A stretch of 62,786 nt of DNA, counting the filler, from Folioceros fuciformis (Eukaryota): NCBI GenBank assembly GCA_049999805.1. It is 12 parts of 12 records of this genome, joined end to end, with 100 filler letters (N's around TTAATTAATTAA, not from the genome) between each part and the next. Parts side by side here need not be neighbours in the genome. Positions count along the whole stretch, not along the records: positions 10,094 to 15,246 come from JBNGIO010001620.1; positions 15,347 to 16,693 come from JBNGIO010001621.1; positions 16,794 to 19,271 come from JBNGIO010001622.1; positions 19,372 to 21,929 come from JBNGIO010001623.1; positions 22,030 to 34,367 come from JBNGIO010001624.1; positions 34,468 to 47,226 come from JBNGIO010001625.1; positions 47,327 to 49,111 come from JBNGIO010001626.1; positions 49,212 to 53,904 come from JBNGIO010001627.1; 4 more parts are not named here. One strand, 5' to 3'. This document shows, piece by piece, positions 10,094 to 49,982 of the stretch (the stretch's first letter is position 1; each line of letters opens with the position of its first letter). Under the pieces are notes generated by a model, which was not told where the DNA came from, ran no database searches, and saw nothing but the letters and a program-made list of their open reading frames with translations. A program made the translations under genes and the position numbers.

Positions 10094-13000
10094 TAGCATC
10101 TCCCTACAACCAAGGAGGGCGCAAGTGTGAGCATGTAGAAAAACATACAGATAAGTTGACCGTGAAATTAGGACCTTAGTGATCATGCCCATTCATGATG
10201 ATTAGGACCTTAGTGATCATGCCCGTTCATGATGAATAGTCGTGACTCTTCGTGACTCATCTCTCATATACTTTCTAGCATTTTCTTATACACAAGATCG
10301 ATTTACAGTCTCACCATTCTCAATTTGAGACATGGTATCAGAGCTAGATCCATGACTCCAATAGCCTACAATGGCTTGCCATAATCAAATCTGCAAACAA
10401 AGGCATCACAATCTCATAGCACAGGCTAACAAGTTGAGATTGCAAAAAAACTTCTTACAACAATAGGTCATAAGCATACCTCGTCCTCCTTGCCACCAAT
10501 GCAAGGAGATGAGGCAGACCATGTAGAAGTTAGAACGAGTTGCAATTAATAGCCACAAACAAACAGCAGAATTGAAAAGGCACATCAACTACTTACATGC
10601 TATCATCCAAGCCATCATATTTAAGTAACTTAGACCTGTGACACCCCTAAGCAGCAGGATGGCTAGTTCTAGTGCTCTCCCTGCCACACAAGCGAGACAT
10701 TACCAGATAGAAAAATTGACTCACCAAAATTACGCAACATGGTCCATAAGGGTAGAATCTCTCCTCAAAAAATTAACGCTATGGCCTATGGTGGATGGCT
10801 CTGAAGTCAGACCAGCCAAGGGTCATGCAAATGAGCCTAATTAGATCGTCAAAGATGCCTCTACCCACACGAAGATCATCTTGCACATAGGAGACAGAAT
10901 CCTACCCAGTGTTAGGCAACAACCTACTGCCAAATCGTTATGGGACAAGCTCGCTACATCATTGCAGGAGGTAAGATTACCATCACAACTCCTCGCTGCT
11001 CAAAAATTGGCCTCCATCAAACTCAAGGACGGAGCTTTGGTCTTGGATTTCCTGGAAAACTGGGAGAAGACACTAGACGAGGCCATCTGCACAAGCCTTG
11101 ACCTAAAGGAGGAACAGCAGGTTACACAATTGCTCATGGCCCTTCCAAAATCCAGGAGGTCGTTTGTGTATACACAAGCTAACTAGGCTACCAAAGCAAA
11201 CCCATTGACCTTACCAAATCTTTTGGTCAAAATTCACAATGAAGATGTCTTGATTGCAAGGGACAACTCTCCTCCTTCAGCTCTCTTTGCAGGTAGACAC
11301 AAGAACCCTAGATTCAAAACTGGATCTAGGCCGAATTTTCGTTATGCTCTAGGATCCAACCAACCACCACCTCCAAACTCTAATCACAGGGACAAAACTT
11401 GTCACTATTACTCCAAGAGAGGGCATGTAGCCCCAGACTGCAGAAAGAAACAGCGTGACAAAGCCGCTAGAATTTACAATCTACTAAGAAGTACCTCTAG
11501 CACATCTGCTGTAGCTACTACTTCCAAAAATGCTTACCTATTCTCCGCTGTCTCTACCTTGGCTGCAAGTCCCATCCTCCAACATCAGTGGCTACTTGAT
11601 TCAGGAGCCACCGAACACATGACCCCACGTAAAGAATGGTTCCTAGACTACTCTTCACTTCAGGTACCCCTCGCCATACTCATGGGGGATGACTCTCCTC
11701 ATATGGCAGTGGGTAAGGGCACCATACAAATTCAGGTACACGACTTTACAGCTCGCATTAGGGATGTCCTACATGTCCCAAGGCGGTCCAAGAATCTGCT
11801 TTTTGTAAAACAGATTATATGTAACCCTAACTGCAAAATTACCTTCAACTAACAAGGATGCGTGATACACACTACTACCTCTGGAGGTCAACATAAAACC
11901 ATCCTTTGCCCTCGTCAAGGGGGCCTCTTCCCTGTAGGTGTTGGGATTCCTACCCTTGCTAAGCCGACATGTGTCAGTTTAGTGGCTAACCTCAACCACA
12001 GCTCCTTGATTAAGCTCTGGCATTTGAGGCTAGCACACCTACAGTACCAAGGCATAAAAGGATGCAATCTAAACACATGGTAGAAGCTGTTACCTCATAA
12101 TTTTCAGGCTGATCTTCCTTTGCGTGAGGGCTGCTTGTTGGGCAAGCAACATACCCAACCTTATCCTAGGTCAGCCAGCACCATGACAAGTGTCTTAGAA
12201 GTAGTGCATGCTGACCTCTGTGGTCCCATACAAACTAAATCTCTAATAGGCAAATTACATAAGTTTGTCCTTCTGGACGACTATAGCCACTACACCCACC
12301 TTTACTTTCTGAGGCACAAGTTAGAAGCATTTGCCTCTTTTCAGCTGCACAAAGCCTTAATCGAGAATCAGACTGGTAAGTTCATCAAGATCTTCCGCAC
12401 AAACAATGCTTGAGAACTCACCTCTCCTACCTTTGAGAAATTTCTATATGCTAATGGCATAATACACCAGAAAATTGTACCCTATGCACATCAACAACTA
12501 GGGAAGGCGGAATGCAGACATCGTTCCCTTATGGATGCCACAAGAAGCTCCCTAGCCACAGCTACTCTACCTAATGCTTTGTGGGCTGATGCTGCTGCTG
12601 CTGCTGTTTGCTATGTCCAAAACCTATGCGACACCTCTACGATCCAGGATAAAACACCTTTTGAAATATGGATAGGCCACAAACCATAGGTCAACCACCT
12701 AAGAAACTTCGGTTGTCCTGCATACAGACATGTCCCAACCGAAGGGCGCCGCAAATTGGACCCAAGATCTGTCAAACTCACCTTCACTGGCTATGGAGAA
12801 AGCGAAGGCGTCAAAGGCTATCAACTTCTGGACCGAGCCACACGGCGAATATCTGTTGGTCAGAATGTCGTGTTTGATGAGAATTCCCTCCTCCAGCCTC
12901 TAGGGGGCCTGCCACCTCCTCCTCAATCAACACTGACGCCACCTTTGTTGACACCAGAAGATCCTGTTGAACCTCATTATGAGGAATTTGGCCTAGATTG

Positions 13001-14015
13001 ACAGCCCAGACCTATGGCAGGACCTGATGCACCTATACCACCTGCCACCCCTGGCCAGACCGACGGCTTCGTTGCACCAGTTCCAGTTCCTCTCCCGGCC
13101 TCACCTCCATAGCCCAGCCCTATCCTCACCACACTGGTTAGGGCTCACTCAACTTCAAGTACCCTGGTCACACCAACCCTTCCTCCTCCTCAACCTGCTG
13201 CCCAAGGACTACTTCCTCCCTTGCAGCTCACAAGGGAAGATATTCCCGGGACCAAGTTTCATGACTTAGATTTTTCCAGCGCCCATGGCTTGGCTTCTCA
13301 TACAATTGATCGACCCAACATAGTTTCAACCAAGGAGGCCCTTGTTGGCCCTGAAGCAGAAGGATGGAAAAAGGTCATGAACAGCGAGTATCAATCCCTT
13401 ATGGACAACAAAACTTGGACCCCTGTACCATTGCCACGAGGATGTCACGTTGTGGGAAGCAAATGGGTACTGTGAAAGAAATATAATACTGATGGTCAAG
13501 TTTCTAGATTGAAGGCCCGTTTTGTTGCAAGAGGTTTCACTCAGCGTAATGGGCTCGATTACTCATGTGATAGGGTCTACACCCCAGTTGTCAAATTGAC
13601 CTCCCTACGTATTATGCTGGCTCTAGCAGCCCTGCATAATCTCCATACCCATCAGCTCGACGTGCAGACCGAGTATTTGTATGGTACTCTCAAGGAAGAA
13701 ATTTATATCAGGCAGCTAGATAGATGTAGAAAACCAGGACTAGACGACTTGGTCTACTTGCTCCACAAAGGTCTTTACGGCCTCAAGCAATCTGGTAAAG
13801 AATGGTATGAAGAACTTTTCACATGCCTCCGAGATCTGGGATATACCAGGAGCGATGCTGATGCTTGTGTTTTCACCAAGAACATAGGCTCTCACATGCT
13901 AATGGTGGGTCTCTACGTTCATGACCTGATCATAATCTCTAATGATGCCAAATACCTATCGGAATGCAAAGGTGCACTCCTGCGTAGATTCTCCATGATA
14001 GATAATGGCAACTAA
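10094..14015 (+). mobile_element. Degenerate Ty1/copia LTR retrotransposon: partial 5' LTR (to 10332), PBS, gag-protease-integrase-RT; truncated within RT, no RNase H or 3' LTR
   Basis: LTR end ...GAGACA followed by PBS TGGTATCAGAGC (10333-10344). Gag KLTHQNYATW, zinc knuckle CHYYSKRGHVAPDC, protease WLLDSGATEHM, LWHLRLAH, integrase VHADLCGP, RT KARFVARGF...LYGLKQSG...LYVHD. Integrase precedes RT (copia order). Several nonsense codons. Confidence 0.95.
10333..10344 (+). promoter_or_regulatory. Primer-binding site complementary to tRNA-iMet 3' end
   Basis: TGGTATCAGAGC directly follows the LTR-terminal CA. Confidence 0.9.
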
Positions 14016-17000
14016 TTTTTGGAAGTAATTTGCATGATTTTGAAAATTTGGAAAACTCTTAGTACTTATAAATAAAAAGTATTTTAAGATTAAAAGAAAT
14101 GAAGATTAATTCTACATTAAAAATATTTTAGATAAAAGAACTCATAGAAAAGAAAACAAAGAGTCCTTCCATAAGAGAGAGAAAAGAATAGGATTGTATA
14201 AGATATTTTTTTACTTTTAGATTTGCATGGATCCAAATTTTGAAATGAAGTTCTCAACTGCATGACTTGCTATTACATCATGACGTTGCAGGTCGGCAAC
14301 ATCGCATCTTGCCTTCCTACTATAGTGCCCTTCATCGATAAAGTCTATATCATTTAATTTTCTTTTCTTTTCATTTGTGATTTCACGCATACGCTGATCG
14401 TCGCGGCAACCCCGTAAAATGCCAAAAGGCTCCTGTGGGGAAAAATATTGCACCTAAGGGTGCTGCGAGGTCCACACAAGCCCTCTATGTCGTTGTAGGC
14501 ATGGGATTCGATCCTAAGGGAATGATTTATGTTAAATAACACAGGTTTCCTCTAAAATTCAGTTACTGCCCGAATCAGTCCTTACCTACCTATCATGCAA
14601 CTACCACTCCCGACGTTGTCATTCAACTACTTTCGTCGCTACCATACTACCTTAGACCAGAACTTCCATAGCGGTCCACCCCACCACCCGGGGCCTCCTC
14701 AACTACCAATCCTAGGCCACCTCGGCCCTCAGCAACCCCCGGGGACGCTCCCCGACGGTCGTGAATCCAGCTACCCCGGTGGGCCCCACTTTCTCTCTCT
14801 CTCTCTCTCTCTCTCTACCCTGGCAACTTGCTCCTCCAGTAACCCCAGATTTCACTTAGCGTCACGAGGTTTTCTACCGTCTAAGACCCTAGGACTTTAC
14901 GGTGTCACTTCCCAGATACCCTCACCCGCTCCTGTTGCGGCTGGCTTGCGTTGGAGGCTTCCTCACCACCTTTACACTCACTCACGGCCACACTCACTCC
15001 TCATCGTTCACACACACACACACCAGGGCTTTGACCACTGATGGCACAGCGCCCGCGCACAGGTTACCCGTCACCTCGACCCTTAAACTCACGCTCCAAC
15101 CAAGCACCCAGACCCGACACCGTCACACACCGTTTATGCTTTACGCCCAAGCCACTACAAACCCGACTTGCCTCTCGCTTATAGCTTTTCTCACATTCCA
15201 CCTTCCCACTCGTCACTTCCCCATACATCAGTCACACCCTCTCTTCNNNNNNNNNNNNNNNNNNNNNNNNNNNNNNNNNNNNNNNNNNNNTTAATTAATT
15301 AANNNNNNNNNNNNNNNNNNNNNNNNNNNNNNNNNNNNNNNNNNNNCCTTACGGTCACGTTCATGACCACTGGACTAGCTAGAAAGTGAGTGCTCAGAAT
15401 TTGTCTTCTTCACACAATCCTGCTGATTGTTACTCAACTGATCAGGTTGACGTTGTTTAGCACGACATGGTGTCTGGTAGGGTCGTGGGTGGTGGCATGC
15501 TCTTCTTTGGGGTTAGTACAGTGACTCGTGCCGAGTGGGGGAGTCAATAGGAAAGTATAGAAGTGTCATGAAGGTGACCGCCGATTAGGTGAGAAACCCT
15601 CATCCAATGTCGTTTAGAATAGAATAGCAAATATATGTCTTAATAAACCAATGCTAGGATAAATGAACCTAGCTTAGCTAGATATTTTGCAAACTAGCTT
15701 AGAAATAGCTAGATGTTTCTAGGCAAGTTGCGTCGGAACACATGTTGGGTGGAACCCATGGTGTGGGTAAGGAAATTGCCATGTGACACCATGAACCTCC
15801 ACTTGCCCGCATCGAGTCAGAAAATCTTGCATGTCATACTGTTTGGAAAAATGCTTGCATGCATTCGACACGTTGTGAGAAATCTCCAAACCCCTTCAGA
15901 AATGACCATCCTCAAACATGGCCATACCCTATGGTTGCCCACATCACCCTACAGCCTTGGACGCTAACCCCACCCCTCATTCCTAGTGGCACCAATGTGG
16001 ATCAAATGTCGCCTAGTCCCTACACCAAGTCCCCATTCCCCGCTGATATGCCCTTCCTACAATCCATGAAGAAGGAAAATGGGAGGCATAGGAATTGTAG
16101 CATTTGTTTACAGTCTTTGCCTTGAAGACAATTGCATGGACATTATGCTGCGACCCAGGCAATGAGGGCTTGCATGAATGGCACCCCATTCCCCTTAAAA
16201 GACGTAATGAGTTTTGGGAGTGACAGCATAGGAGATCATGCCACGTCATAGTAGCTAGCGTCACTCTTGCATGTGTAGGGCCTTCTAGACTTCCAATGTG
16301 ATTAAATTAACATGGTCTCGTGAGGAAGGCGTATCACCAACTGTAACATCATAGGTGGCTTCGTTTGCACAGGGACACCGAGCCTCAACGTGTTACCAAG
16401 TGGGTGGGTTGTAACTTGTACTGTAAAAGAGGAGTGTACCATGACACCCGTAAACCCAGTTGTGTTTGTAGTGGCTAAAGGAAGCAAACACTTCACTCTT
16501 ACAAGCTTACAACTCTTAGGTAGGCTTGTTGAGAGAATACAAGTTGCTCAAAGGCTAGATTGAGCTTGGAAGTGTTAACTTTGCAAGCTTATTGCAAGAC
16601 ACAAGTTGCTAATGATTTGAAGTGCTGGACCTATGATTTTGCAAGGAATGATTTAAAGTGTTGCAGCTACAATTTTGCAAAGGAGAAGAGATTNNNNNNN
16701 NNNNNNNNNNNNNNNNNNNNNNNNNNNNNNNNNNNNNTTAATTAATTAANNNNNNNNNNNNNNNNNNNNNNNNNNNNNNNNNNNNNNNNNNNNGGCCCGC
16801 GGGGTTTTGGCTGCTAATCACACTTCTTCTCACCACTTCCCTTTTCTTTTCCCACTACTCATACTCCGCCCATGGAGGCAAGCTCAACCACCAGGGGGAA
16901 CAGTTGCCAGAGAAGGCTTTGCGGACAGCCATCCAGCAAGAAAGAGGTGGCGTCCACAAGATCTTTGAAGATCAGGTATCCTTCAAGGTTTCAAGATAGT

Positions 17001-17964
17001 TTAATAGGTGGTGGTAGGGTCAGCAGGTTGTTGAGCTAGCTCATCAATATTGGCGGCGGGATGTGCTAAAAAAGTTTAAATAAGTGGTTGGTGACAGCCG
17101 ACTAGGCTAGTTGTTGTAAAACAATAATAATTGTCAAGCTAAAGAGAGGTGAGGTAAGAGAGAGAGAGACTCCTATAAGATACAGTGAGCCCCTAGGAAG
17201 CAAGTCGTCACTTTATGATCTCTCTCGAGGTGCCCCTGCTTGGATACAGCAGTGTGTGCCGGTTGTGCATGTGTGCAACGTCTAGTAAAGCTTTGAGAAG
17301 TAGTGACCAAGGTTAAGGGCTAGGTCCCTTCAATTTTGGATCGTGCTCTCCGTGTCGTGCCCCATAATCTTTCATTCTTGTTTCCTCGCAGGGCTGGAGT
17401 GAATGCCGACCATGCTTGCATGGTTGTTAAGCCATATTGATTAATTAGGGTATCTAATTAATCAAATAGATATAATTAGGCTAATCATATGTGATTAGTC
17501 TAATTATATGATTAGGTAGATCAGGGATAGCTATGTAGGGAAAGTGTGACACGTTTAGGGTTCAGAACCGTCATTGTGCGAAATGGTGGAGAGGTTTCAA
17601 GCGTGGGCGGCATGGCGACAATGGAGAAGAGAAGGACTGGGGGTAACGGCCAGGAGCAGTGTGACAGATAAGTGCTGAACTTCTAGGCTCTATCCTGCAG
17701 TTGTTAGAAGTTCTCTCGTTGAGCCTAAGCCTGCGGTCAAGGTAGCTGGCCAAGGAACTACTTGTGAATCCACTGCTCAAAAATCAGAGTGAAAGCATTG
17801 ATGGGTTGCATTGTGGTGTGAGCATGTGTGACTAGCAATCTGAGCCACGCCGGTGCTAGGTGGAGAACTTACTACGACTCGCAAACCCAGCTGCTATGCT
17901 TGCAGGATCAAGATCTAGCTCACAAACCCCAGAGCTCAGGCAGGCAAGTTCACAAGAGCTGTTG

Positions 17965-18365
17965 GGCTTCGTCGCGGGCATCAGCACAACGTCGGTGGAC
18001 GACAATGCTGGACAGTGAGCTGAGGCACTCAACTCAATTGCCAAGGGAATTCCGGTAAGCTATGGTGTCCCGTCGCGGGCATCAAGGTAGCGCCAGTGCT
18101 AGATAGTGAGCTGAGGCAGTCAGCTCAAGTGCCAAGGGAATTCGAGCAAGTTGTGGTGTCCCATCGCGGGCATCAGGGTAGCGCCAGTACTGGACAGTGA
18201 GCTGAGGCACTCAGCTCAAGTGCTAGGGGAATTCAAGCAAGTTGTGGTGTCCCATTACGGGCATCACGGTAGCGCCAGTGCTGGATTTAGGGTTTAGGCA
18301 CTCAGCTCAAGCGCCAAAGGAATCCCAGCAAGTTGTGTGTCCTGTCACGGGCACCAAGGCAGCGT
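17965..18365. repeat. Tandem repeat, ~91-bp unit, ~4.5 copies, in non-coding TE-like contig
   Basis: CGGGCA(T/C)CA recurs near 17975, 18076, 18167, 18258 and 18348. AGTGAGCTGAGGCA recurs at ~91-bp spacing. Confidence 0.85.
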
Positions 18366-20354
18366 CAGAGCATGGAGCTGTTGAGCAGCGGGCTGGTGGA
18401 CAACGATGGATGGACGTGTACGTGAGTGCCAGAAGTCGGGAGGGAGAGACTTAGTCAGCGCAAGCTGAGGCTGTCCATGAACTCAAACTGAACCGACTGT
18501 GTGGAAGGCCCGCTCGTGGAGCTGAGGAGGTGACTGTACAGTCTATGATCTGCAGGGAGGCGACACCCAGGCGAACCCGAACTTGTCTAGTCGTGAGCTG
18601 GAGCCAACAGGGGCAGATCGCGTGTGTGGGAGACGACGTCTATGCGCACGCAAGGCCACCGTCGCCGCTTTCAGGACTGAGGAGCTGGGGATCGCGACGC
18701 AGTGCCAAGATCACGACACCGTGCTTGGATTTCGACGGGGTGCTTGGATTGTGACACTGTGTCTGGCCCGTGGCGTGGTGCCTGGATTACGAAGCTGTGC
18801 CTAGACCTCAACGCTGCGATTGGATCGTGTAGCTGAGCCTGGATCGTAGCGCTGGCCTGGCCTGGGCAGGAGGTGAGTAGGGGAGGGGGGGACTTGAGCC
18901 ATGGACAAAGCTATGAGGGCAAGGACAAGCACTGCCAACGCTGTTTGTAGAGGACACCACCAAGATCAGAATCAACACTTGCGAGGCTTTTGTGGGGACA
19001 CCGACATACGCAGTAATGTGTGTTGGACGATTGAGGGTCAGTCAGTTGACACAGACAACTGCTCTGGCTGGACATCACTGGAACATGTCGTGAGGCTGTG
19101 TGATGATGTTTTTATATGAGCTGCCACTGACGTTGTTACTTTTTGACGACAGACGTTTTTGGCGTATGAGAAGCGGATCAGGACTTGCAAGGGCTACTAT
19201 TTTGTTTGATGGACATCCCATTTACCTTACGGTCACGTTCATGACCACTGGACTAGCTAGAAAGTGAGTGCNNNNNNNNNNNNNNNNNNNNNNNNNNNNN
19301 NNNNNNNNNNNNNNNTTAATTAATTAANNNNNNNNNNNNNNNNNNNNNNNNNNNNNNNNNNNNNNNNNNNNGTACTTGGACATTAAATTAGAGTTAATAG
19401 GTTTTGCATCAACTATGTTTTGCAAACATTTGTTTAAATCACAATCGAGCCTTGGAAGCACATTGAATGTCAATGCTATAGCGCATTAGCACTAACAATG
19501 AAACACCTACTAGTAGTCTGGGAATTTGCTTATTCTACCTAAGATCTAGATCTTCAAAATTGTTATTTTCTTCCATAGTGTTTACAATCTAGGTAGCGAG
19601 AAACGGTGCCCTAACTAGCCCGTATCCCGCCGTCCTGGATAGGTTTAGGTCATTAATAAATAGCCATATATATACTTAAATATATTAAGTGCACGAACAG
19701 GTGCACCGAAGCGTCAACGGTTAACCGCCATGCCGTTTCACTTGACACGGCCACATAAGGGCCTCACACGCACATTCATTTTAGAATCTGAACACAAGCT
19801 TTCTCTCTACGCTGCGTGCTATCGATCCTACGCTATGGTATCAGAGCCTGTCTATGGATTCCGCTGCTCCTTCCGCTAGTACCTGTGAGACCTGCAAGTC
19901 AGAGTCCTGCATCAGAAGCCTGTCCCATGAACAATTTCGCGCAGCCATTGCAGCACTCAGGATTGCACTCACCCGGTTTGGGAGCATGGCGGACACATTC
20001 TTGGCGGAGGCAGTCAACCACTACTACTCCTAGTACTTGCGCACCTCCTGCCAAAGAGGTCTGTGTCTCATCTGATGGATTTGCGCTCTCTAGTGGGCTG
20101 TTTGCAATTTCCTGCACATTCTCACTCGACAGGTTTGATCAGTGCGCACCCCTAAGATCTCTGAGACTCAGCCTACTGTAGAAAAGAATCTAGAGCGACA
20201 GACCGAGGTCAAGTTACACTGATATCCCAGTGTCTAATCACACACCAGGGCACTAGCGTAGCCAACCCGGTCCGTCGCTCACACAACGGTCAGTCCGTAG
20301 ATTTGCACAAAGCATGTCAAAAATTCATACTCAAAATTCAGACTCTCTAAAACA

Positions 20355-20945
20355 ATGCCTCGCAATGGTCGCACAAAGCGCACACTCACTCCACATAGGG
20401 AAACAGCATCTTCACTTCTCCCAGCGACGAGTTCCTGCAACAACTGTGGAAGGAGTGGACACCCGCGCCCATCTGTGAGCACATCTGCCTCTGCACCTGC
20501 CCAGACAGAGCTGGTATTGAAGGCTGTTCGGGGCCTGTTTGTTGAAGAACGCCGTCATACCCACGCAACTCTGTGCGATTTCCGTCGCATGCGCGAAGTG
20601 CAAGAAGAACACCTCCGCTGCAAGATTGACAACATCAATCGCAGGTGCAGACAACTCTCAAAGGACTTGAACACACTCTTCTCACAGGTCGCACACCTGG
20701 AGAGAGCGTCAAAACAACAAGACTCAAAGTCAGCACCAAGTCAAAATTTGCCAACTTACTCTCCGAATTCGTCAGAGAGAGTATCTGAAGGAAGAACTAA
20801 GGACGATATCATTTCTGAAGTGGCTGCAGCGCTAACACGCATGTCACTCGAGGCCAAATCCGGGAAGATGGTGCTAGAGCATGTCGGCACCTTGGGATTC
20901 CAGCCCAGCGGGACGTCCTCCTCGCAGGATTCCTGCCAGATCTGA
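20355..20945 (+). CDS. 196-aa intact ORF between copia PBS and gag; CxxC-x4-H motif plus predicted coiled coil; function unknown
   Basis: ATG-to-stop ORF containing CNNCGRSGH and the heptad-rich MREVQEEHLRCKIDNINRRCRQLSKDLNTLFSQVAHLER. It overlaps the gag-containing frame by 65 nt. Confidence 0.6.
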   Translation: MPRNGRTKRTLTPHRETASSLLPATSSCNNCGRSGHPRPSVSTSASAPAQTELVLKAVRGLFVEERRHTHATLCDFRRMREVQEEHLRCKIDNINRRCRQLSKDLNTLFSQVAHLERASKQQDSKSAPSQNLPTYSPNSSERVSEGRTKDDIISEVAAALTRMSLEAKSGKMVLEHVGTLGFQPSGTSSSQDSCQI

Positions 20946-21929
20946 AAGGACTTCTCCAGCGACGAGACCTGAAACATCAACTGCTGCCACCGGATCTGAA
21001 GAGACACGTGAATCGTCACCAGTTGAAGAGGCACTTGAAGCACCGTTTGCATTCTTTGCACCTGAAACGTCGCTTGCATCTGTCCTTCCAGAAGACCCCT
21101 TTGGTGTCTCAGAACTAGAAGACTACACGGTCTCAGATCCTCCACCAAATCCTTCTCATACAGCAGACACATTGGCATCACCAGTAACTGCTCCTGAGCG
21201 GGATCATCAGCAGTCAGAGTCTCCCCCTAGTAGTCCGTCCCTGTCATATAAGTCTTCCTCCAGCAGTTCAGAGTCTTCGTTAGGATCCTTTGATAGTGCA
21301 TCTTCGTTTTCCCTCAATAGATTATTTGACCTCAGTCAAACACAATTCGGTAAGCATACTGTCATGGGTACCAATCCTCCTACAAACGTCACTGTCAACA
21401 ATTTCAAGTATGACTTTAAAGATAGAGACAGGTTCAATGGTCAGCACTTTGACATCTGGATGATTAGAGTTCGTACCATTCTACAAGAGCAGGAACTTTG
21501 GGATTTTGTTACTGGCGCAACTCCAATGCCAGCAACACCTGCTGGAGGTGCAACTGCTGCAAGTCGAGCAGACCAGCATGCCTGGAAGCTCAAGGATCTT
21601 CGGGCACAAAATGTGATCCAGTCAGCACTGGACTTAAGCATGATGTCTCATGCTCGAGAGGCCTCAAGTTCCAAGGCAATCTGGGACTCTCTCTGCCAAG
21701 TTCACCAAAAGAAAAGCGTGACATCACTGGTTCATGCTACACGTGACTTCTACAATTTAAGAATGCGTGATAATGACACAGTTGAGATTCATGTCAGCCG
21801 GTTTCGGATGCTACGCACCAAACTTATTACTGCTGGCACAACTGTGGATGAGCTCCAAGCAGCAGTGGCTCTCCTTATGTCGCTCCCAGAAAAGTACAAC
21901 AGCTTTGTGAGTACACAAAATCAGCACAT
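20881..21929 (+). CDS. Copia Gag (partial) with ~160-aa Ser/Pro/Glu-rich N-terminal extension
   Basis: The frame is open from 20881 to the contig end, with Gag motifs from 21364 onward. Confidence 0.85.
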
Positions 21930-23270: not shown

Positions 23271-23589
23271 TCTAGCCTTCTACAATGGAACATCTAAGTC
23301 CTCGAACTTGTGTGGCATGCATAGGGAACTCGTGTTGTATGCAAAAAGGGATAATGGCCACAGTGGAAACCCTTGGTACCATGAACCCTATTTGGTTGAG
23401 GATAGCAAGAAAGGGAAAATTGTCAAAAATAGTTGAGTCCAAAACAAACCCTAGTGCAAGCTTGTGTACTTTACATTAGATATAGTGCATCAAGATGGGG
23501 CGTAATGCATGGACAAGGTTTATTGGAAATGGAACGGTTTCAATATATATCTTATTTTAAGTGTAAAATACTTAGTAGCTAATACCTGC

Positions 23590-24890: not shown

Positions 24891-25751
24891 GAAGGTCGTC
24901 CAAGAACCTTCAAGTAGGCCATTCTGAGCGCTACAGAGCACTACCATGATGCTCTGCTCAGAGCATTAGGGTTGCTTGTAACCTGGAGTAGATATTCCCA
25001 AGGCATGGAATTCCGGGTGCTTGATGATGGCATATCTAATCCATGCCTGGTGGACGAGGATGTGGTGTTGTACAGGAAGAGGAAGATGTCTGGGGCTGGG
25101 CTTGTCTCTGCTGCAGCGTCCTTGCAGGTGCGGAGACTGTGTTTTCGATTGGCTGGTTTTTCCGACGTCAGTAACGCTATGAAATGGAAGATGTATCTTT
25201 GGCCTCCGATTGACGTTTGTTGGAAGCCCAGGACGATATAGGGGGTTTGGTAGACCTGAATTGGGGGTAGCTGGTTCCACATTTTTTTTATAAATAGCGG
25301 TTACATCCGGGACTTTTATGCGGCCTAGTCTGCGGCTGTCCAGGATGCCAGTTGAGGCTCGGTGCAGGTGCTGGGAGCTTCTTTTGTGTCCCGGCTATGT
25401 TTTTGTAGGTGTTGCTGTCCCGTACAGGGCCAGAGAGACGCATAGCTGACCGGTCTCTTCCGTCATGGATGCCTTCTGCTTCTGTGGCATCAAACAGCTT
25501 CTGTGATGAGAGTATTAAATCGTGATGGAATGCGGACTGTCTCGTGCAGGAGCTGCTTGGAGGAGGAGGAGTTGTAGGTTTACGGACTTGAGATTGTATG
25601 CAATGCCCTTCTTATTCTGGTATGGAACAGCTTGACATGTCAGGCAACGACATGGTCGCTGAGTATGGAGTGAGCGGGTCTGAATCCCAGGTGGGACGGA
25701 TGGCAAGGATTTAGGGCAAACAGGAGATGACCACGCTGCGTGCGGAAGGCA

Positions 25752-28700
25752 ATGGCATCAAAATTGATGATCAGGGGGCAGTTGGAAGCTGTAGACGAAC
25801 TCGAGAATTCCCTTTTGCAAGCTTTCACTGGTCTGCAACCTATGCTCACTCCCCCTTATCACCTCGCTAGCCAATCTCCTGCTCAGCATGCGAATCTTCC
25901 TCAGGCCCTTCTGTATGCCATCCTCACCCACCCGGCCTCCGCTGTTTCCTATGCTGCCCAGCTGACAGCAATTACACACGATGGATATGCATCGGTTGTG
26001 TCCATCTTGAGTCGTCTGGTAAGCGAATCCTACCCGAAGCTTTTGGATCAGCCACGAAGCCAGATAACCTGGCTCCTCCGCCAGCTCATATCCTACTCTG
26101 CTGCTGATGTTGATTCCCTTTGCCTTTGTCTTCTCCGGCAAGTTGCTGGCGGGGATCTAAGAGAGCGGAACCTTATACTTGCAAGGGATTTGCTGGATAT
26201 TATGCGCAGCAACTGGTTGTGGTTCAACTCAAGTGTAGTTTTGCTGACCACTGCAGTGTATACCTATTTGCGCCTATTACCAGATCATGCCATGGCTAAA
26301 AGCGCCGCAGCAAGTGAGCTCAAGCAGAAAGAGACAGCGTTCTGCATCCAGATTCTGCGAGAACGTTTTCAAGATTGCAAGATTATTGGCCGGGACCTGG
26401 TGAGGCTTCTGCAGGATGTGGCTCTTATCCCTGAGTTTGAGCCTTTGTGGAGGGATTTGCTCTCAAACCCTTCTGTTTTTGGAATTGAGGACATCTCCAA
26501 GCTCTATGAAATCCGCACCCCTACTCGATACATCACCTCACGCATAACACCGGAAATGGAGACTCAAATCCGTTTTATGCTCAACAGTGTAAAGATGGGG
26601 TACCAGCGTAGATACCAGACCTGGTTTGCCCACAAGTATTTGTCGAGTCCAGAAAGTGAAACCCTTGTGTGTGACCTTATTAGGTTCATATGCGCTGTGA
26701 TTCATCCTTCTAATCAAATTCTTCAGTCTGACATTGTGCCAAGATGGGCAATCATAGGCTGGTTATTGAAATGCTGCAAGAGCAACCACCTTGAAGCCAA
26801 TGCAAGGTTCGCGTTGTTCTATGATTGGTTGTTCTTTGGGAAGAGACATGACAACATCATGAATATAGAGCCTGCTATTCTACTCATGACACACTCTATA
26901 CCCAAGTATGTCGATATGACACATTCTCTGTTGGACTTCTTGTTTCTTTTGATTGAGAATTATGACCCTCCCCGTAAGGCTCTCATTCAACAAGGAGTAA
27001 CTAGTTCCATCGGCATCTTAGTCGAAAAAGGTGTAGTGAGGTCCTTAGAGCCGTTGTTAGCATCCTGCAGTGTTGTGGCTTCTCCTCTGCGCGATAAGCT
27101 GATGTTCTACTTTCCAGCGTATTGCAAGGTTGAGCCTATCAGAATAGACTTGAGGCCAGAGCATGCGCCAGTGGGCAATGCCATGCCCTCTGTGCAGGCA
27201 GTATGCGGAAGCAGAGGCGCACAGGTCCAGAGTGGAGTTGTTCGGACTGCAGAGCTCACAGATGCTGAAGCAACGAAAATGGAAGATGTCAAGCCGAATG
27301 AGTATGGAGTCGCTGAAGCAGCCAGCCGTAAGCGAAAGCGGCCACCAGATTCGGAGGGTCTTTGGGCAGAAATGCCTTTGAACTTCAAGAAACTTACAGA
27401 TGCCTTGGACATTTCAACTGAGGTGGCAGTCAGTGCATTGGAAAAGCTTGTCTTGTCTTTTACGTCTGCTTCAGACCAACTTGTGACAGGAAGGTTTGCA
27501 GGGCAAAACATCAATGATAATGTCACAGGTTACGATGGGTCTTCAAGCCCTGTGAATCACATTCTGGACTCCGCCCTGGGTAACTTGGCGAAGTTTGCAC
27601 ATGAGGTTACTGAAATCCTGAAGAAGGGTGGGTATGATATATTTGGACCTCTTAAAAAGGTACCTTCGAATAACTTGGAGGCGGATGAGACAAATTCTCT
27701 CACCTCAACGTTGCTTAGGCTGTATGTGGCAAACAGGCATCCCCAAGTGAGGAATCTTCTTGTGTTTTGGCATCGTGAGGGCCACTCTGTTGGCGCGCGT
27801 CTGCTGTGCTATGTATCACGGCTTGCAGAGGAACTTGAGCAATCGGCATCTTCAAGCTTGGGCTTCAGCCACATGCAAGATGTAGATAACTCCAAGCCTG
27901 CCAGAATCGATGATGATTCAGTCGACACGAGCAGCATAGGAGAGGAAGGGGACGAAGAGGGAGAGGTGACCGAGAGCAATCCAGATGCACGAAAACAGAA
28001 AGCTGTGCCTAGTCAATCAGCAGGTCAGGTGCAGGTGGAGGGTGCGAATAGGAAAGCTGCTTCTAGAGGTTTGCAAGATACTGAGATGCACATGCGCTGT
28101 CGGACAGCTGTAGCTGATGCCTTCAGTGCCTATGAAGAATTTGTGCGACACATCATGAAGGAACTACCCTCCACCCAAAATGAGGCCCTCACGGTTTCCA
28201 GCCAGGGATTGCAAAACCACAGATTGGGTGTAGCAGTGAGGGCAGATGCTCAAGTTACGGATCCCAGTGTAGGCCTTCTGAGTGATCTACAAACCTGCCT
28301 TGTTTGGAATACGTACAGGTATTTGCGGGTACTTCCATCGGTTTTTCGCTACTTGCCGCATTTGGCAACAGGAAAGGATGAGTTAGTGGAGGAGCTAGTT
28401 GCGGTTTTGGATCCTTTGGAGCTTTGCAACTTCGAGTTTAGGCTGAGTCTCGGAGAATTCCAGATCCTGGGATTGGCTGAGGGTTTGGACAGGCTGATCA
28501 GGAAGTCCCTGAAGTGGGAATTTATGGAGCAGCAATTTTTTTGGCGGCTGCTTGTTGCCGAAGCGCTTGCAGTTCAGCCAAGAATGACTCTGCAGGTGCT
28601 GCGGACATGTGTTGCTTGTGTACAGCCATCTAGCAATGCTCAGGCCATGGGTGGTCTTATGTGTCTCCTGAGGGGGCAGCCACCTACGCCACTTCTTGTG

Positions 28701-29069
28701 AATACTGTGCTATCATTGCCGCATGCCTTTGGGAGGTTCGCGGCAGTAGTGCTGACAAACTGGATATCCTCACACTTGAAACTTTTGAGATCCTGCTTGC
28801 GTTCCTTGAATTCTGGGAGCCTGGCCCTGAAAGACAGGCCAAAGAAGGCTGAAGACTCCGAGGAGGATGCTGTAGCGGGGAGATACCATAGCTCCGTGGT
28901 TGTTTGTCTTCTGAATTCCCTTAAGGATCTGGAGAACGGACGGAGCAATAATGGAGAAGAAAGTGGTGTTCGAGAGATACGACGTGCAATTTTGCAACTC
29001 GCCGGAAGCAGGGGCTCTGGGAACCTGAGCCCAGGGCCTGGTGATGCCATGGGTTCACCTGATAGCTGA
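25752..29069 (+). CDS. INTS3: Integrator complex subunit 3 (INTS3 / SOSS-A), intronless, 1105 aa
   Basis: IGRDLVRLLQDVA, TPEMETQIRFML...VKMGYQRRYQTWF, DLIRFICAVIHPSNQILQSDIVPRWAIIGWLL and LFYDWLFF...NIMNIEPAILLM are INTS3 N-terminal signatures. The first ATG is at 25752. Confidence 0.95.
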   Translation: MASKLMIRGQLEAVDELENSLLQAFTGLQPMLTPPYHLASQSPAQHANLPQALLYAILTHPASAVSYAAQLTAITHDGYASVVSILSRLVSESYPKLLDQPRSQITWLLRQLISYSAADVDSLCLCLLRQVAGGDLRERNLILARDLLDIMRSNWLWFNSSVVLLTTAVYTYLRLLPDHAMAKSAAASELKQKETAFCIQILRERFQDCKIIGRDLVRLLQDVALIPEFEPLWRDLLSNPSVFGIEDISKLYEIRTPTRYITSRITPEMETQIRFMLNSVKMGYQRRYQTWFAHKYLSSPESETLVCDLIRFICAVIHPSNQILQSDIVPRWAIIGWLLKCCKSNHLEANARFALFYDWLFFGKRHDNIMNIEPAILLMTHSIPKYVDMTHSLLDFLFLLIENYDPPRKALIQQGVTSSIGILVEKGVVRSLEPLLASCSVVASPLRDKLMFYFPAYCKVEPIRIDLRPEHAPVGNAMPSVQAVCGSRGAQVQSGVVRTAELTDAEATKMEDVKPNEYGVAEAASRKRKRPPDSEGLWAEMPLNFKKLTDALDISTEVAVSALEKLVLSFTSASDQLVTGRFAGQNINDNVTGYDGSSSPVNHILDSALGNLAKFAHEVTEILKKGGYDIFGPLKKVPSNNLEADETNSLTSTLLRLYVANRHPQVRNLLVFWHREGHSVGARLLCYVSRLAEELEQSASSSLGFSHMQDVDNSKPARIDDDSVDTSSIGEEGDEEGEVTESNPDARKQKAVPSQSAGQVQVEGANRKAASRGLQDTEMHMRCRTAVADAFSAYEEFVRHIMKELPSTQNEALTVSSQGLQNHRLGVAVRADAQVTDPSVGLLSDLQTCLVWNTYRYLRVLPSVFRYLPHLATGKDELVEELVAVLDPLELCNFEFRLSLGEFQILGLAEGLDRLIRKSLKWEFMEQQFFWRLLVAEALAVQPRMTLQVLRTCVACVQPSSNAQAMGGLMCLLRGQPPTPLLVNTVLSLPHAFGRFAAVVLTNWISSHLKLLRSCLRSLNSGSLALKDRPKKAEDSEEDAVAGRYHSSVVVCLLNSLKDLENGRSNNGEESGVREIRRAILQLAGSRGSGNLSPGPGDAMGSPDS

Positions 29070-43933: not shown

Positions 43934-44337
43934 CGTCTCCTACGTCCAGATTTCCCGTAGACAGGGTAATGACTTGTATTGGCGAAACGTGCACCAATAG
44001 ACAATTTTCAACGGGAAGATTCGGATACAAGCGGCAGCAATCAAACTGCAACTGAAACCATCCACATCCAGGGATGCACTTCTAATCAGGAGCTTCTAGC
44101 ACAACGCACTATCTCATCGCGTTCCGGAATTTCCTGCCCAACAACTTTTACTAATCGATCCCAAGAAAAGACTGAAGAAGTGGTAAGTGCGGTCAAAACT
44201 TGATGCCCTGGGGCAACCTGGTAGGCCAGGGGACCATACTTGAGCCCACGTGAGAAAAGCCATGACAACTAATCCCCAGCTCCACCGATGCAAGGTAAAC
44301 AATCGCGGCCTCCATTGGGCCCTCAGCTCTCCAGCTC

Positions 44338-47014
44338 TCAGCTTATTAGCTTAGAGACGACGCCCGCACCGACTGTTCGGCCACCCTCCCTCAGTGCGAA
44401 GCGTTGCCCTGTCCTCACGGGGGACGCCACCAGGTTGAGAATAAGGTCACTCCCTTACAAAACAAACTGAACTGACAAACGAGTTGGAGTCCAAAAGTTG
44501 TCGCTTACCATGCTCAATCGGGACAGGGCAGATGAGCTCAAATGTTGCCGTAACGTTGTCCCCAGGCATAACCATCTTCACGTTTTCTGGCAGTTCCACT
44601 TTACCGGTCACGTCAGCTGTTCTTAAATAGAATTGAGGTCGATAGTTTGTTAAGAAAGCTGTATGCCGGCCACCCTCCTCTTTCGTCAGGACATAAATCT
44701 CGGCTTCAAACCTCTGATACGTCTTTACAGAGCCAGGCTTGCACACAACCTGGAAGTACCATTTAAGTGTGAGAGTTCGAGTCCTACACAATGTATCAGG
44801 CCGTCTCTGGCAGAATCATTAGACCAATACCTGTCCTCGCTGGACATCATCCCGTTTCAACCCTCGTATTAGCAAGCCAACATTGTCTCCTGCCTGCGAC
44901 AACACAACAGCATTGGTGAGACATCCAAAAGGCTGGGAAAAGTCCACAGCCACCTCACCAAAGAAGGGCGCCAAACAGTACCTGTCCTTGATCAAGACTC
45001 TTCTTAAACATTTCAACGCCTGTGACTGTTGTCTTCTGTGGTGGGCCCTGTGAACATTATTATTCAATTAGCTAAATATTCATCCACAAGCCACACCAGA
45101 TTCATGACAGATATGGGAAAGGGAGCATGTGACTACTACTTACTGGCTTAAGCCCCAGAACTTCAATTTCATCTCCAACCTTGACTACACCTTGCTCCAC
45201 TCGGCCAGTAACCACAGTTCCACGACCCTGGAATGGTTTGAGTGGAAGGGATCCAGAAGGTTAGGGCGAATGATTCTGGTTGCCAAGTAAAAAGAAGAGA
45301 GGAGTAAAAGAAGACAGAGAAGACAGAAATACGCTAGAAAACAACAATTGTCACCTGGATTGAAAAGACATCCTCAATGGGCATGAGAAAAGCCTTATCA
45401 AGCATCCGCTTCGGCTCTGGGATGTACTCATCGACTGCCTTCATAAGATTCAAAATTGCATTTTTCCCAAGCTCTTCGTTGGTGCCTTGCAGAGCTGCTA
45501 AGGCAGACCCTCGTACGATGGGTATGTCATCACCCGGAAACTTGTAGAAACTCAACAATTCTGCATGTAGGAGAACGTAACTTTAGCTCAGGAGGTATCT
45601 TCTAACCCAAAACCCATGAACTTTCGCTGACTCGTAACACATACATAAGTTGGCCTCACCTCGTAACTCCATCTCTACTAGCTCAAGCAGTTCTTCATCC
45701 TCAACAGCGTCCACCTTATTGAGAAAGCAGACCAGGGAAGGCACACCAACCTGCCTTGTTTCACATGGACAGACAGAAGAGGAAAATGGTTTCAACACGA
45801 AGAGAATCCTGTGAGAGTTACCACAAGATGAAGACAAAAAATGAGAATTATTTAGTTCCAACATCAAATGACGTAAACCTGGCGGGCAAGGAGGATATGC
45901 TCCTTGGTCTGAGGCATGGGCCCATCTGGAGCTGATACCACAAGGATGCCACCATCCATCTGTGCAGCCCCTGTGATCATATTCTGTGGCAACCGAAAAG
46001 AATTGACATGGACAATGAGGACGACAAAAAAAGGAAGTCCAAACCGGCAAAATAGAGACATGCAACCATCTTCAGCACACTTTCGCCCGCCCAATGTTCG
46101 TACCTTCACATAGTCAGCATGTCCCGGACAATCAACGTGTGCATAGTGCCGCTTGTCCGTTTCATACTCAACATGTGCCTGTCATTGAAAATCCATCTGA
46201 ATTCAGAACAAGACATACATCAAAGAAATGCTGAGCAGTCAGCAAGGACGGTGGCACCAAAAATGCCCATAACAGAAACCCCTAACCACAAAGAACCCAC
46301 CGTGGCAATGGTGATTCCGCGCGCTTTTTCTTCCGGCGCTTTGTCAATCTCATCGAACGCAATAGCTTTGGCTTTGCCCTCCATGGCAAGAACCTGAAAG
46401 AAGAGAATGCATGTCTAGACTTAGAACAAGCCCCCAAATCAACCCTTCACCGAATTCCAGGAAACAGGAATTCCACGTCCGGCACCTTCGTGATAGCTGC
46501 AGTGAGTGTGGTTTTCCCATGATCGACGTGGCCAATTGTTCCAATGTTCAAATGAGGCTTCCTGAGACCAGGCCACCAAAATAGAGTGAAACCCCTCTGG
46601 GTTTAGGGTTTAAGCGAAACCGGCCCTAACTAACTAACACCTCAAACCTCTCACGACACGCCGTCTGAGGCGATGCCAGAAGAATTCAGCTACTGCTAGC
46701 AACAGAATTTCATTAGAGAATGTGGAACGTTCTGAACTTCAACTCCCCAAGCAAGAGGATGCGCAGGAGAATAAGATCGAGGCTGAAGAGGCACCGAACA
46801 GCACATCAAGGCGGCGACACGTGACTGACCACGCAAAAGTGAGGGCAACCTACGTGCGATTAAATGTGGCCATATGCCGACGGAGCAAGAGGAAGGCAGC
46901 TGCAGGAGCGCCATCCTGTTGAACACCAACGGATCCAGACACGATAGCAGCAGAGGCAGAGGACGAGCGCGCAGCAGGGAAAAGGCGCAGCACGCGTCGC
47001 GCTGCCGCAGCCAT
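44338..47014 (-). CDS. TUFM: Mitochondrial elongation factor Tu (nuclear-encoded, multi-exon)
   Basis: Arg/Ala/Ser-rich presequence, [77 protein letters not shown]. No plastid-type insertion was noted. Confidence 0.95.
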
Positions 47015-47326
47015 GGCCGGGCAGCGAGTGAGCTCAGCCTGCTCCCAAGACGAGTCCCGAATTCCTAACCAGTCGACCACATCGCGCCAGCCGTCCCAAG
47101 GCAGGCAGATCCCGGCTGCTATCACTCGCCGCCAAATGTCTTAGATGCTTGGTCGCCAAGCCTGCTGCTCCTGCTCCAACTCCTAAACCGTAATGCGGTT
47201 TCCTAACGGAGTTTCGCACATTCTCGNNNNNNNNNNNNNNNNNNNNNNNNNNNNNNNNNNNNNNNNNNNNTTAATTAATTAANNNNNNNNNNNNNNNNNN
47301 NNNNNNNNNNNNNNNNNNNNNNNNNN

Positions 47327-47993
47327 ACGCCTGCTCTCCTTTATGTTGTTTTTGCAACCCGGCTGAAGTGAGCCGAGTCTGCTCTTCCTGGTAAAGGGCT
47401 CCTATCAAATCTTCCATAGTAATGGTAGTTCATAGGGTGCCACCTGATGCAGAAGCTGCAACAGGGCCATTCTGATAACTTGTAACAAAAGATTGATAGG
47501 AAGGAGGCAAACTGGTAAGTAACTGGGAGATTGATTCAGATTCCGTCATTTGTGTTTTGGTAATAGATTGAATCTGAGCTCGAAGGTGATGAAATTTGCT
47601 GGTATGTGTAGCCATCTTGTCCCCTTCTTTCATTCGCAGTGTATAGAATTCTATACGAACTGCTGATAATGTGGCCATGGTGGTTGTGTGATAGGTTTTC
47701 TCCAACTGGTTCCAAATATCTTCAGCTAATGTGAGGAATTCAACATTGGGAATAAGGGCTGCATCTAGCCCATTCACTATCACAGCCATTGCAACACCAT
47801 TGTTGTGCTCCCATTTGGCAAATTCATCAGGTTTGGTTTGCGGGTCAGGTTTCTTAAAGGAACCATCGACAATAGACCAAACACCTCGAGCTGTGAGAAT
47901 AGTTCTCATTCAAACTCGCCAGATAGAATAGCCAGTACCTCTAAACCTATCCTTATCTTTGACATCAGAACTAAACGAGGCATGGTTTGCCAT
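47327..47993 (-). mobile_element. Degenerate copia gag (partial, cut by contig end)
   Basis: MANHASFSSDVKDKDRFRGTGYSIWRV*MRTILTARGVWSIVDG...AEDIWNQL...LRMKEGD...QLLTSLPPSYQSFV...*...LIGALYQEE, with two in-frame TGA. Confidence 0.88.
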
Positions 47994-49982
47994 GCTTGTG
48001 TTGAGTGAAGGCTGCAGACTTAAACTGTTGAAGCTTTTTATCAACGTATCCAACTGTGAGGCTGAGGTCATAAGGTACCTACAACCATCAAGAAACTATG
48101 GTTCCTGAACGACAGGTGAGTACACTTATGCATTTTGTGGGTGGCTGATTGGTTTGGTCTCTAAGAATTGATAGAAAACAAAACTACTCATGCGCAGGAT
48201 TTAGAGGATATACCAACTTTTCGAGGTATATGATCTAAAGAGGAAGAGCTAGCAGTGAAGGCTGCAGAATCCTATGAACAACGTAGTCCTGAGCATGACA
48301 TCCAGGTCTAGTGTGAACGGGTAAGTAGAAAAGAACCCTAAAAACTTAAAGAAGTTTCATGTTCAGAAGAGACCTTTCTCAAAAAACGAAAACCTAACCG
48401 TCGTGTCTTATCCATGTGAAACGACAGGTTAGGTACACCAATCACAACAACACAGAAAACCGTATGGAAAAGATGCAAGTAGAAATGCACCGCTTCGAAT
48501 CTGGACAGGTATTGCTCCTGCTGCTCTCGCTTTGCTCCTATGTAGCGGAAGAATTCATGGCGTTGAGGGATCAATTACTGAATGAGAGCATCCAACCTCC
48601 ATTCTTTGAAGCTTAGGGTCCATACACCTCAAAAGATCAGCAACTTCGTTGATGTTCTTCTGGATATTCAATTTATATTTGGTGATAGATTGCTTAGTAT
48701 CAGGCGAAGAACAAACCAGTATGTCTTTGAGGGTTTTTAGATTGAAGATGGCAATAGAAAGTACTTTCTCCACCCTAAATAATAGAGATCGTGTCTCATT
48801 GTGAAGCTCCAAAGTTTGGGGTAGTAGTTTGTTTTGGTTGAAAAAGGGTTAATAGTGGTATGGTTTGGTTTTCTTTTTCTACTTATTTTCCCTAATTTTA
48901 CTTGATTTTCTGGTCATTTTCCTATTTTTCTTTGTGCTAATTAGGTTAATTGACCAGGAAATAGTTGGTTTGGTTATAAGAGTGGGTATAGGTTTGGTTC
49001 CAGACCTGGGAAAGTTTAGGTCCGGTACCGGGCCATAGGGTTATTAAAGCCCAATGTGCTTAAACTAATGTGATTAGTTTAATTAGGCTAATGTGATTAG
49101 TTTAGTTAGGCNNNNNNNNNNNNNNNNNNNNNNNNNNNNNNNNNNNNNNNNNNNNTTAATTAATTAANNNNNNNNNNNNNNNNNNNNNNNNNNNNNNNNN
49201 NNNNNNNNNNNAATTCAGGGCACTTGGAACAAGATGTGGGGCCCAATATTCTTGCTCAGGTAAGCACCACAAATCTCTTCTATGAATAGAGGGCGGGATA
49301 TACAATGGGCCTGCTTGAAAACCTTGAACTGATTCGAGAAATGAAATAATACTGCGAAGAATGGCCTCGAGGAGGTCGCAGTAGTCCGCCGAGCTTGGCG
49401 ATGGCTTGTTGTCTTCTGGACTTTGTCCCATCTTCAGGTGCATGCTTTTGCAGGTGGATCGTTTGTGTGAGGGTCCAGGTCTTGCGGGCGTCTGCAGAAA
49501 CTCTTCGAGAGTTGTGTGTTAACAAAGCGGTGGCATTACCTGAAAAAGGACAGTGAGGCTCTGGTAACTTTGTCTTACGCTATCCTTCTTTCCTTGTCGT
49601 CTGCGGTAGCTTGCCTTGCCTTCTGCTCTACTCCATTCCTTGCATTCCTGCGGGTGCTTGTCTACCTCTTTCATTGCGCCTTTACCACGAACCTACAATG
49701 CGGAATGACCAGACACGGGCATCGATCATGTCAACTGCAACCCTAAACCTAGAACGAGACACCTGAGAGGCGAAAAGCAGAGATAATCGGCAATGGCGCC
49801 AGGTCACCGAGCCTGAGGGGCCCCCCCTGTGCGTGAGATGCCGACGGAGCTCGACAACGTAAGAAACAGACATGAAATGGTGTCACCCAGGACAGGCTCA
49901 CCCCAGCCCAGGTCCGGTCCGGTCCGGGCCCCGGCCCCGCCACTCGGCGCCGTCAGCTTAGGCTCAATAAGATCTGCCTGGG

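Follow-up and report, generated by a model that had tools for sequence, protein, structure and literature searches.

Short sense open reading frames under purifying selection lie between the primer-binding site and gag in Ty1/copia retrotransposons of Folioceros fuciformis

We analysed a 62,786-nucleotide (nt) stretch of Folioceros fuciformis DNA (assembly GCA_049999805.1), hereafter the window, which consists of short contigs strung together with N spacers and comes from a genome of 87 Mb in 7240 contigs. Three copia elements, each on a separate contig (family 1, 10125-14015; family 2, 19836-21929; family 3, 48797-47327), belong to families that all carry an additional open reading frame (ORF) with its own conserved stop, here called ORF0, in the interval from the primer-binding site (PBS) to gag. 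Comparisons among natural copies show ORF0, and a smaller upstream ORF (uORF) where one is present, to be separate genes under purifying selection on protein sequence. The feature is real, selected, broader than the three window copies and distinct from the Gag extension of Sireviruses. A previous reading of the window (the sequence-only reading) had noted coding-like sequence upstream of the Gag core in all three elements. Its intervals 10371-10628 and 20355-20945 stand, and of its minus-strand interval in family 3 (48338-48812) only 48797-48555, the end of ORF0, is coding-like; 48554-48338 is spacer, and a foreign repeat makes up the remainder.

The elements have the order gag-protease-integrase-reverse transcriptase (RT) between long terminal repeats (LTRs), and Pfam identified a copia-type gag at all three sites, which places them in the Ty1/copia superfamily. 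A TGGTATCAGAGC-type PBS directly follows the 5′ LTR in all three families; we take it to be of the type that matches the 3′ end of the whole initiator-Met tRNA. Full elements are 5.2-7.0 kb long (6.2-7.0 kb in families 2 and 3) and have LTRs of 195-281 nt.

Selection was measured as the ratio of nonsynonymous to synonymous divergence (dN/dS) between pairs of natural copies (Nei-Gojobori, pooled pairs, bootstrap over codons). We used 10 of 28 stretches for family 2, 8 of 12 for family 3 and 9 of 18 for family 1, leaving out near-duplicate, truncated and ORF0-less copies. ORF0 gave 0.28 (0.21-0.37) in family 2, with 0.20 in its helix part, 0.40 (0.32-0.49) in family 3 and 0.34 (0.20-0.52) in family 1, none of them near 1. 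The comparison values were 0.62-1.2 for shifted frames, 0.54-0.77 for non-coding spacers and 0.08-0.23 for Gag cores; because the method applies no transition correction, the spacers are the fair neutral baseline. Pooled pairs are non-independent, and nine disjoint ORF0 pairs gave 0.18-0.53. The weakest part was the first 50 codons of ORF0 in family 3, with a dN/dS of 0.63 and a shifted frame there at 0.44. In-frame stops in ORF0 (11/699, 3/1656 and 4/1554 in families 1, 2 and 3) compare with 34-125 in shifted frames. Insertions and deletions kept the frame in 8/10 cases in ORF0 of family 2 and 14/17 in family 3, against 5/24 and 6/37 in the spacers, and ORF0 was open in the reference frame in 6 of 10 family 2 copies and 4 of 8 family 3 copies. 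ORF0 pairs from two other clades gave 0.15, 0.49 and 0.29, values biased toward the low side by protein-guided alignment and by the choice of open ORFs.

The predicted ORF0 products share an organisation more than a sequence. Their first 30 residues hold 5-10 Arg or Lys in 16 of 19 upstream ORFs, and the heptad contrast was matched by at most 5 of 100 shuffles in 15 of 19. For the window families the figure was 0/100 in families 2 and 3 and 4/100 in family 1, bearing out the heptad-like helices that had been claimed for all three; the CxxC said to precede the coiled coil in two modules is present in families 1 and 2. The same test found no heptad signal in the uORF. AlphaFold models of a family 2 copy (L099; helix 73-147, predicted local distance difference test score ~95) and of family 3 ORF0 (helix 108-194) both consist of a low-confidence N-terminal half and one long helix (shallow alignments, predicted template modelling score 0.24-0.30). 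No stretch of transmembrane strength was found in 24 ORFs (maximum 19-residue hydropathy 0.41-1.52). Eight hhalign comparisons detected no ORF0 homology between the main clades (best probability 5%), in agreement with the earlier impression that the modules lack obvious similarity, and pairwise scores against shuffles were high only inside clades, with a few weak cross-clade values (z 3-8). The uORF has homologs in four further families (L154, L174, L175, L176) at 47-57% identity with three invariant cysteines. ORF0s cannot be aligned among the families with this common uORF, and therefore fast divergence and separate origins both fit. No outside homolog of family 2 ORF0 was found among 1.84 billion representatives, outside searches with family 3 ORF0 and the uORF gave no match, and no ORF0 or uORF matched any Pfam entry, known silencing-related domains included, above the curated cut-off. 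The leads that ESM Atlas returned (0.80 and 0.90) pointed to nothing but unnamed clusters, and Rfam gave 0 matches at six loci.

How far does the arrangement extend? From 150 RT matches listed out of 2920 candidates we picked 40 stretches that had long frames or enough room upstream. At threshold one of them lacked an RT; within range, 10 lacked a gag, 11 lacked a PBS, and 18 contained gag and PBS alike. An apparent 3875-amino-acid (aa) frame at C6165 proved to be a run of N and was discarded. Ten of the 18 carry an ORF of 141-213 aa that starts Met-Pro-Arg/Lys (in L181 it sits inside a longer frame), and two (L155, L171) are ambiguous. No ORF of at least 50 aa from an AUG was found in the other six, namely L173 and five copies (L142, L143, L144, L166, L169) of the most abundant young copia family in the sample, which accounts for 14 of the 40 stretches and has a 539-nt leader. 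Beside these counts, L172 and L181 have at least 700 nt more upstream of ORF0, and L171 has a 1.5-kb leader with frames at odds with the ORF0 pattern.

For an RT tree we added 32 outside proteins, excluding two long rows; they were candidates sharing words with one RT of clade A, one of the ORF0-bearing clades, so that the outside sampling is partial. One group (bootstrap 94, Shimodaira-Hasegawa-like approximate likelihood-ratio test 97) unites families 2 and 3 with the remaining ORF0 clades, and most of its sampled members carry ORF0. The only outside proteins in it are P0019, P0073 and P0078, all unnamed and from Logan contigs, and no named element was found within it among the outside proteins searched. 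Named matches to the one clade-A RT used as query were mostly at ~50% identity or below over the full RT. Named angiosperm elements are the neighbours of the abundant ORF0-less family. Family 1 forms a long branch to which the tree assigns no resolved partner; a joint clade with the main group is not rejected (approximately unbiased test, p 0.49) and likewise not demonstrated. The single copia lineage with a 5′ module proposed earlier thus holds for families 2 and 3 and leaves family 1 unplaced. The whole-tRNA-Met type that we presume for the PBS differs from the half-tRNA-Met primer site of Bryco/Osser, and at 6.2-7.0 kb families 2 and 3 depart from Lyco elements (4.7-4.9 kb, no extra ORF).

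In family 1, ORF0 is intact in copy L111 and missing from L112, L113 and L115. A 294-nt gap between two start contexts removes it in these three copies, and a short direct repeat stands at both start codons. Because one ORF0-less copy nests among ORF0-bearing ones, ORF0 was lost in this family and is dispensable in cis.

The relation of ORF0 to gag varies. All three relative frames occur, and every gag starts with an AUG of its own. The ORF0 stop and the gag AUG are 11-30 nt apart in 8 of 17 elements; in four family 2 copies the gag AUG lies 59-65 nt ahead of the stop, so that the frames overlap; and in five elements (family 3 and L149/L177) the gap is 261-453 nt and holds 1-9 AUGs. The conserved stop and the variable frame relative to gag mean that the earlier alternative of "ORF0 or extended Gag" resolves to a separate ORF0. 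Gag extensions do exist as well, and the one tested, in family 2, had no heptad signal in the shuffle test.

We suspect that gag-pol is reached by reinitiation, a reading to which we give a little under an even chance and which is suggested by the tight stop-start spacing; the uORF-to-ORF0 gap is likewise ~9 nt in four families. Leaky scanning was rejected as unlikely because the 13 leaders counted hold 149 AUGs against ~185 expected (~80%), with 5-24 in each and none under 5; the ORF0-less leader of L142 has 1 against 5.7 expected. In a badnavirus-type leaky-scanning leader the upstream ORFs are cleared of internal AUGs, and the ORF0 leaders are not AUG-free. Splicing, internal entry or an internal promoter may serve instead, above all in family 3. 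Spliced copies fixed in DNA were sought and dismissed: among 72 alignment gaps listed, two have ends that could be GT/GC-AG, and both leave ORF0 in place. One RNA run aligned to one family 3 copy gave short pieces only, with no joints, which favours no reading over another. A UGGGA motif, presumably of calicivirus type, precedes the ORF0 stop in 5 of 17 elements and was not accepted, four of these being family 2 copies in which it codes for Gag Trp-Asp. A 7-bp hairpin after the family 3 ORF0 stop is kept in 6/6 copies and worn in the window copy; no covariation (two-sided change) was found in it across the 6 copies. Stable stems also lie past the ORF0 stop in L149 (645-755, z -2.4) and L177 (4342-4452, minus strand, z -1.6).

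The arrangement that we propose is a Ty1/copia element with a polycistronic 5′ end, [uORF]-ORF0-gag-pol. ORF0 would encode a small basic protein with a disordered, Arg-rich N-terminus, which binds nucleic acid or carries it into the nucleus, and a long helix, through which the protein oligomerises as a coiled coil. Its most likely target would be the RNA of its own element, for whose export, stabilisation or packaging it would serve as a scaffold, in a mode that we liken to Rev/Rex of retroviruses or the virion-associated proteins of caulimovirids. The Cys3 uORF probably encodes a small partner or regulator that binds zinc. Termination-reinitiation would deliver gag-pol across the 11-30-nt gaps, and a structured spacer would do so in family 3 through internal entry, splicing or an internal promoter. 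ORF0 would be accessory rather than core because one subfamily of family 1 has spread in its absence. Caulimoviridae (upstream ORFs and virion-associated protein), HTLV (Rex), HIV (Rev) and LINE-1 (ORF1p) supply known examples of small, basic, oligomeric proteins that bind nucleic acid and whose genes lie next to that of a polyprotein or in front of it; the likeness of ORF0 to these is by architecture only, with no sequence or fold match. That ORF0 is an oligomeric RNA-binding accessory protein is our preferred reading, held tentatively and at slightly less than even confidence. Several observations count against parts of this picture. Insertions and deletions in family 1 ORF0 lack frame bias (4/15), in a family that is more decayed, and only 1 of 9 family 1 copies is open in the reference frame. 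L141, L155, L179 and L113b gave no heptad signal. The family 2 overlap and the 261-453-nt gaps of family 3 and L149/L177 misfit simple reinitiation. A basic tail with a coiled coil is compatible with several roles, and in the searches described here no homolog or fold match links ORF0 to a protein of known function.

One such role is that of a host-directed antagonist, in which ORF0 or the uORF would counter silencing or target chromatin by binding a host protein through the coiled coil or the zinc site. The turnover is fast and arms-race-like, with ORF0s unalignable among uORF-sharing families, the basic N-terminus could be a nuclear signal, and ORF0 and the uORF would be expressed first from the LTR. 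Every region tested shows purifying selection, however, no known silencing-related domain scored above cut-off, and the most abundant young family has no such ORF in the leaders seen, so that we consider this role unlikely. Less likely again is a particle-associated adaptor for transport within or between cells, comparable to the virion-associated protein of caulimovirids or the coiled coil of Sirevirus Gag. In its favour, ORF0 pairs a predicted coiled coil with a basic part; the available text of PMC2829016 reports LC8 binding by the Sirevirus coiled coil, and that of PMC11952523 ties the upstream sORF2 of MDG1 to cell-to-cell spread. Set against these are the lack of a transmembrane segment (maximum hydropathy 1.52 in the ORFs scanned), the lack of any Foldseek match to viral models at E ≤0.001 and the amplification of copies without ORF0.

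We give little credence to ORF0 as a self-limiting copy-number factor or to upstream ORFs that mainly throttle gag-pol translation. Long leaders with 5-24 AUGs should lower that translation, and family 1 tolerates the loss of ORF0, but a pure throttle would not preserve amino acids (dN/dS 0.15-0.40), heptads and invariant cysteines. That ORF0 is an N-terminal part of Gag joined through readthrough, frameshift or splicing seems very improbable. ORF0 of family 1 does lie in the gag frame ten codons off, and that of family 2 overlaps gag in another frame; a general fusion is nevertheless unlikely because ORF0 has its own stop and may stand in any frame relative to gag. All three frames occur even inside clades A and B, the family 1 stop alternates between TAA and TAG from copy to copy, and the family 3 spacer of 346-453 nt contains stops. 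Chance frames or decayed captured host sequence would explain why nothing searched contains a homolog and why many copies are broken; frame-specific dN/dS, stop depletion, in-frame insertions and deletions, the heptad contrast and a uORF conserved across families with diverged RT contradict this, and we find it hardly credible.

The closest layout among known systems, judging from the available text of PMC11952523, is that of the MDG1/412 group of Drosophila Ty3/gypsy elements, which have two small selected sense ORFs (sORF1 and sORF2) upstream of gag, an unspliced full-length RNA and a nuclear sORF1. These are animal gypsy elements with ORFs of other sizes and motifs, and their sORF2 is a membrane protein, whereas the ORFs described here have no stretch of transmembrane strength; the central transmembrane helix with an adjacent basic region of MDG1-type sORF2/FAST-like proteins was not found. 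In plants, REXdb lists 5′ sense extra ORFs in Tekay (33%), TatII (23%) and Ogre (21%) (Additional file 5 of PMC6317226), and in copia only in Bianca (~5%) and Ikeros (~4%), figures for which the column was inferred from rows with empty cells. The accessible part of the same paper marks only SIRE in copia by extra ORFs, which are 3′, and counts ORFs from 250 codons up; those described here, at 53-235 aa, would therefore be missed. The REXdb 5′ ORFs are likewise sense ORFs of heterogeneous sequence between PBS and gag; the difference is that here a 5′ ORF marks most sampled members of one copia clade. The words hornwort and Anthoceros are absent from the main text of PMC6317226. Plant 3′ extra ORFs are covered in PMC7264820 and a rice element with an ORF0 is reported in PMC3485330, as far as the available text of each goes, and PMC7264820 and PMC6317226 acknowledge that what such ORFs do in the LTR elements of plants is an open question. 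We found no description of 5′ ORFs in such a copia clade in the literature searched, most of it outside subscription journals.

Sireviruses offer the other likeness, being copia elements to which a coiled coil has been added close to gag. Their coiled coil, according to the available part of PMC2829016, is inside Gag and downstream of the zinc knuckle, in elements of ~10.5 kb with LTRs of 1.28 kb. The modules described here are unlike that extension: the predicted coiled coil lies in a separate upstream ORF, not inside Gag past a CCHC knuckle, by a heptad scan that covered the upstream ORFs and the family 2 Gag extension, and the elements, at 5-7 kb with LTRs of 200-280 nt, lack the size of ~10 kb and the long LTRs of SIRE.

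Extra ORFs of LTR elements are thus already known, and it is the 5′ layout that is unusual for copia. Among LTR retrotransposons, copia elements pass for the simplest, their extra genes being mainly the 3′ ones of SIRE, and a clade with selected 5′ genes shows a layer of accessory genes. It is conceivable, though we doubt it somewhat as a whole, that these elements represent an uncatalogued copia clade of seed-free plants with two- or three-cistron genomes (Cys3 uORF, ORF0, gag-pol), coupled reinitiation and an ancestral, fast-evolving ORF0 of Rev/Rex or virion-associated type, and that short 5′ accessory genes in copia are widespread and have been overlooked by surveys with a 250-codon cut-off. 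The layout also raises the question of how a plant ribosome gets to gag-pol behind 85-235 codons and 5-24 AUGs, for which the natural variants (11-30-nt gaps, overlap, long structured spacers, ORF0-less copies) form a ready comparison set.

Table 1. Coordinates of the three copia elements and their upstream ORFs in the window
Feature	Position	Strand	Remarks
Family 1 5′ LTR (approximate)	10125-10332	+	Stretch recurs at both ends of full-length copies
Family 1 PBS	10333-10344	+	Presumably initiator-Met tRNA type
Family 1 ORF0, 85 codons	10371-10628	+	Basic start, CxxC, heptad helix; dN/dS 0.34
Family 1 gag-pol, degenerate copy	10659-14015	+	Pfam DUF4219, Retrotran_gag_2, Pol_BBD; order gag-integrase-RT
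Family 2 PBS	19836-19847	+	TGGTATCAGAGC-type
Family 2 uORF, 59 aa	19854-20033	+	CxxC-x4-C plus amphipathic-looking helix; dN/dS 0.15
Family 2 ORF0, 196 aa	20355-20945	+	Arg-rich start, CxxC, long heptad helix, second short helical part
Family 2 Ser/Pro-rich N-terminal Gag extension	20881-21363	+	161 codons before Gag core; dN/dS 0.36
Family 2 Gag core, cut by contig end	21364-21929	+	Pfam; dN/dS 0.08
Family 3 gag with 26-codon N-terminal extension	47327-48071	-	Core Met 47993; window copy has stops
Family 3 non-coding spacer	48072-48554	-	dN/dS 0.61-0.77; 6/37 indels multiples of 3; T-rich blocks
Family 3 ORF0, C-terminal 80 aa plus stop	48555-48797	-	Heptad helix; dN/dS 0.40, helix 0.29
High-copy repeat unrelated to family 3	48800-49111		Bases 1-312 of query match separate places, 91-98%

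The window copies differ in preservation. That of family 1 has an ORF0 in the gag frame interrupted by two internal TAG stops, with the gag AUG 30 nt past the ORF0 stop; LTR pairs of ~200 nt are found in copies L109 and L112. ORF0 of family 2 is uninterrupted, with its CxxC ahead of the helix, and measures 196-233 aa across copies. The Gag extension of this family overlaps the end of ORF0 in a different frame, and 14 of its 17 insertions and deletions are multiples of 3; neither this extension nor the uORF had been reported in the sequence-only reading. The gag starts of L174, L175, L176 and L154 have N-terminal extensions rich in Arg-Gly repeats, possibly RNA-binding.

The window copy of family 3 is without PBS and ORF0 start because 48800-49111 is a different high-copy repeat; in complete copies ORF0 is 201-235 aa long, begins just past the PBS and has an Arg/Gly-rich start. 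The repeat has ~30 scored matches and begins with TG on the plus strand; it could represent an LTR or one end of a DNA element. In family 3 gag, dN/dS is 0.31 in the extension and 0.09 in the core. Spacer divergence is lower than that at synonymous sites. The spacer (L127, L064, L129, L128) contains two TAGGGTTT-like blocks, which we take to be telo-boxes, together with T-rich tracts, and these could mark an intron or a promoter inside the element.

Elsewhere in the window, an inverted repeat at 5329-6101 with 197-nt arms, 94% complementary and 379 nt apart, resembles a miniature inverted-repeat transposable element. An identical 47 nt occurs at 15347-15393, where one contig begins, and at 19225-19271, where another ends, and is probably an assembly overlap. 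An intronless frame of 1112 codons (25731-29069) presumably resembles Integrator subunit 3, and a worn duplication with ~2-kb spacing at 54305-57341 (repeats D9, D10, D12, D13, D16) resembles what we assume to be an aldo-keto reductase gene. A degenerate array of short ACCTAA/ACCTAG-like units at 58985-59268 is telomere-like. The genome as a whole, whose small size and DYW repertoire would fit a seed-free land plant of hornwort or Selaginella type with abundant RNA editing, contains at least 150 DYW-domain matches above cut-off (150 of 150 scored, from 488 candidates).

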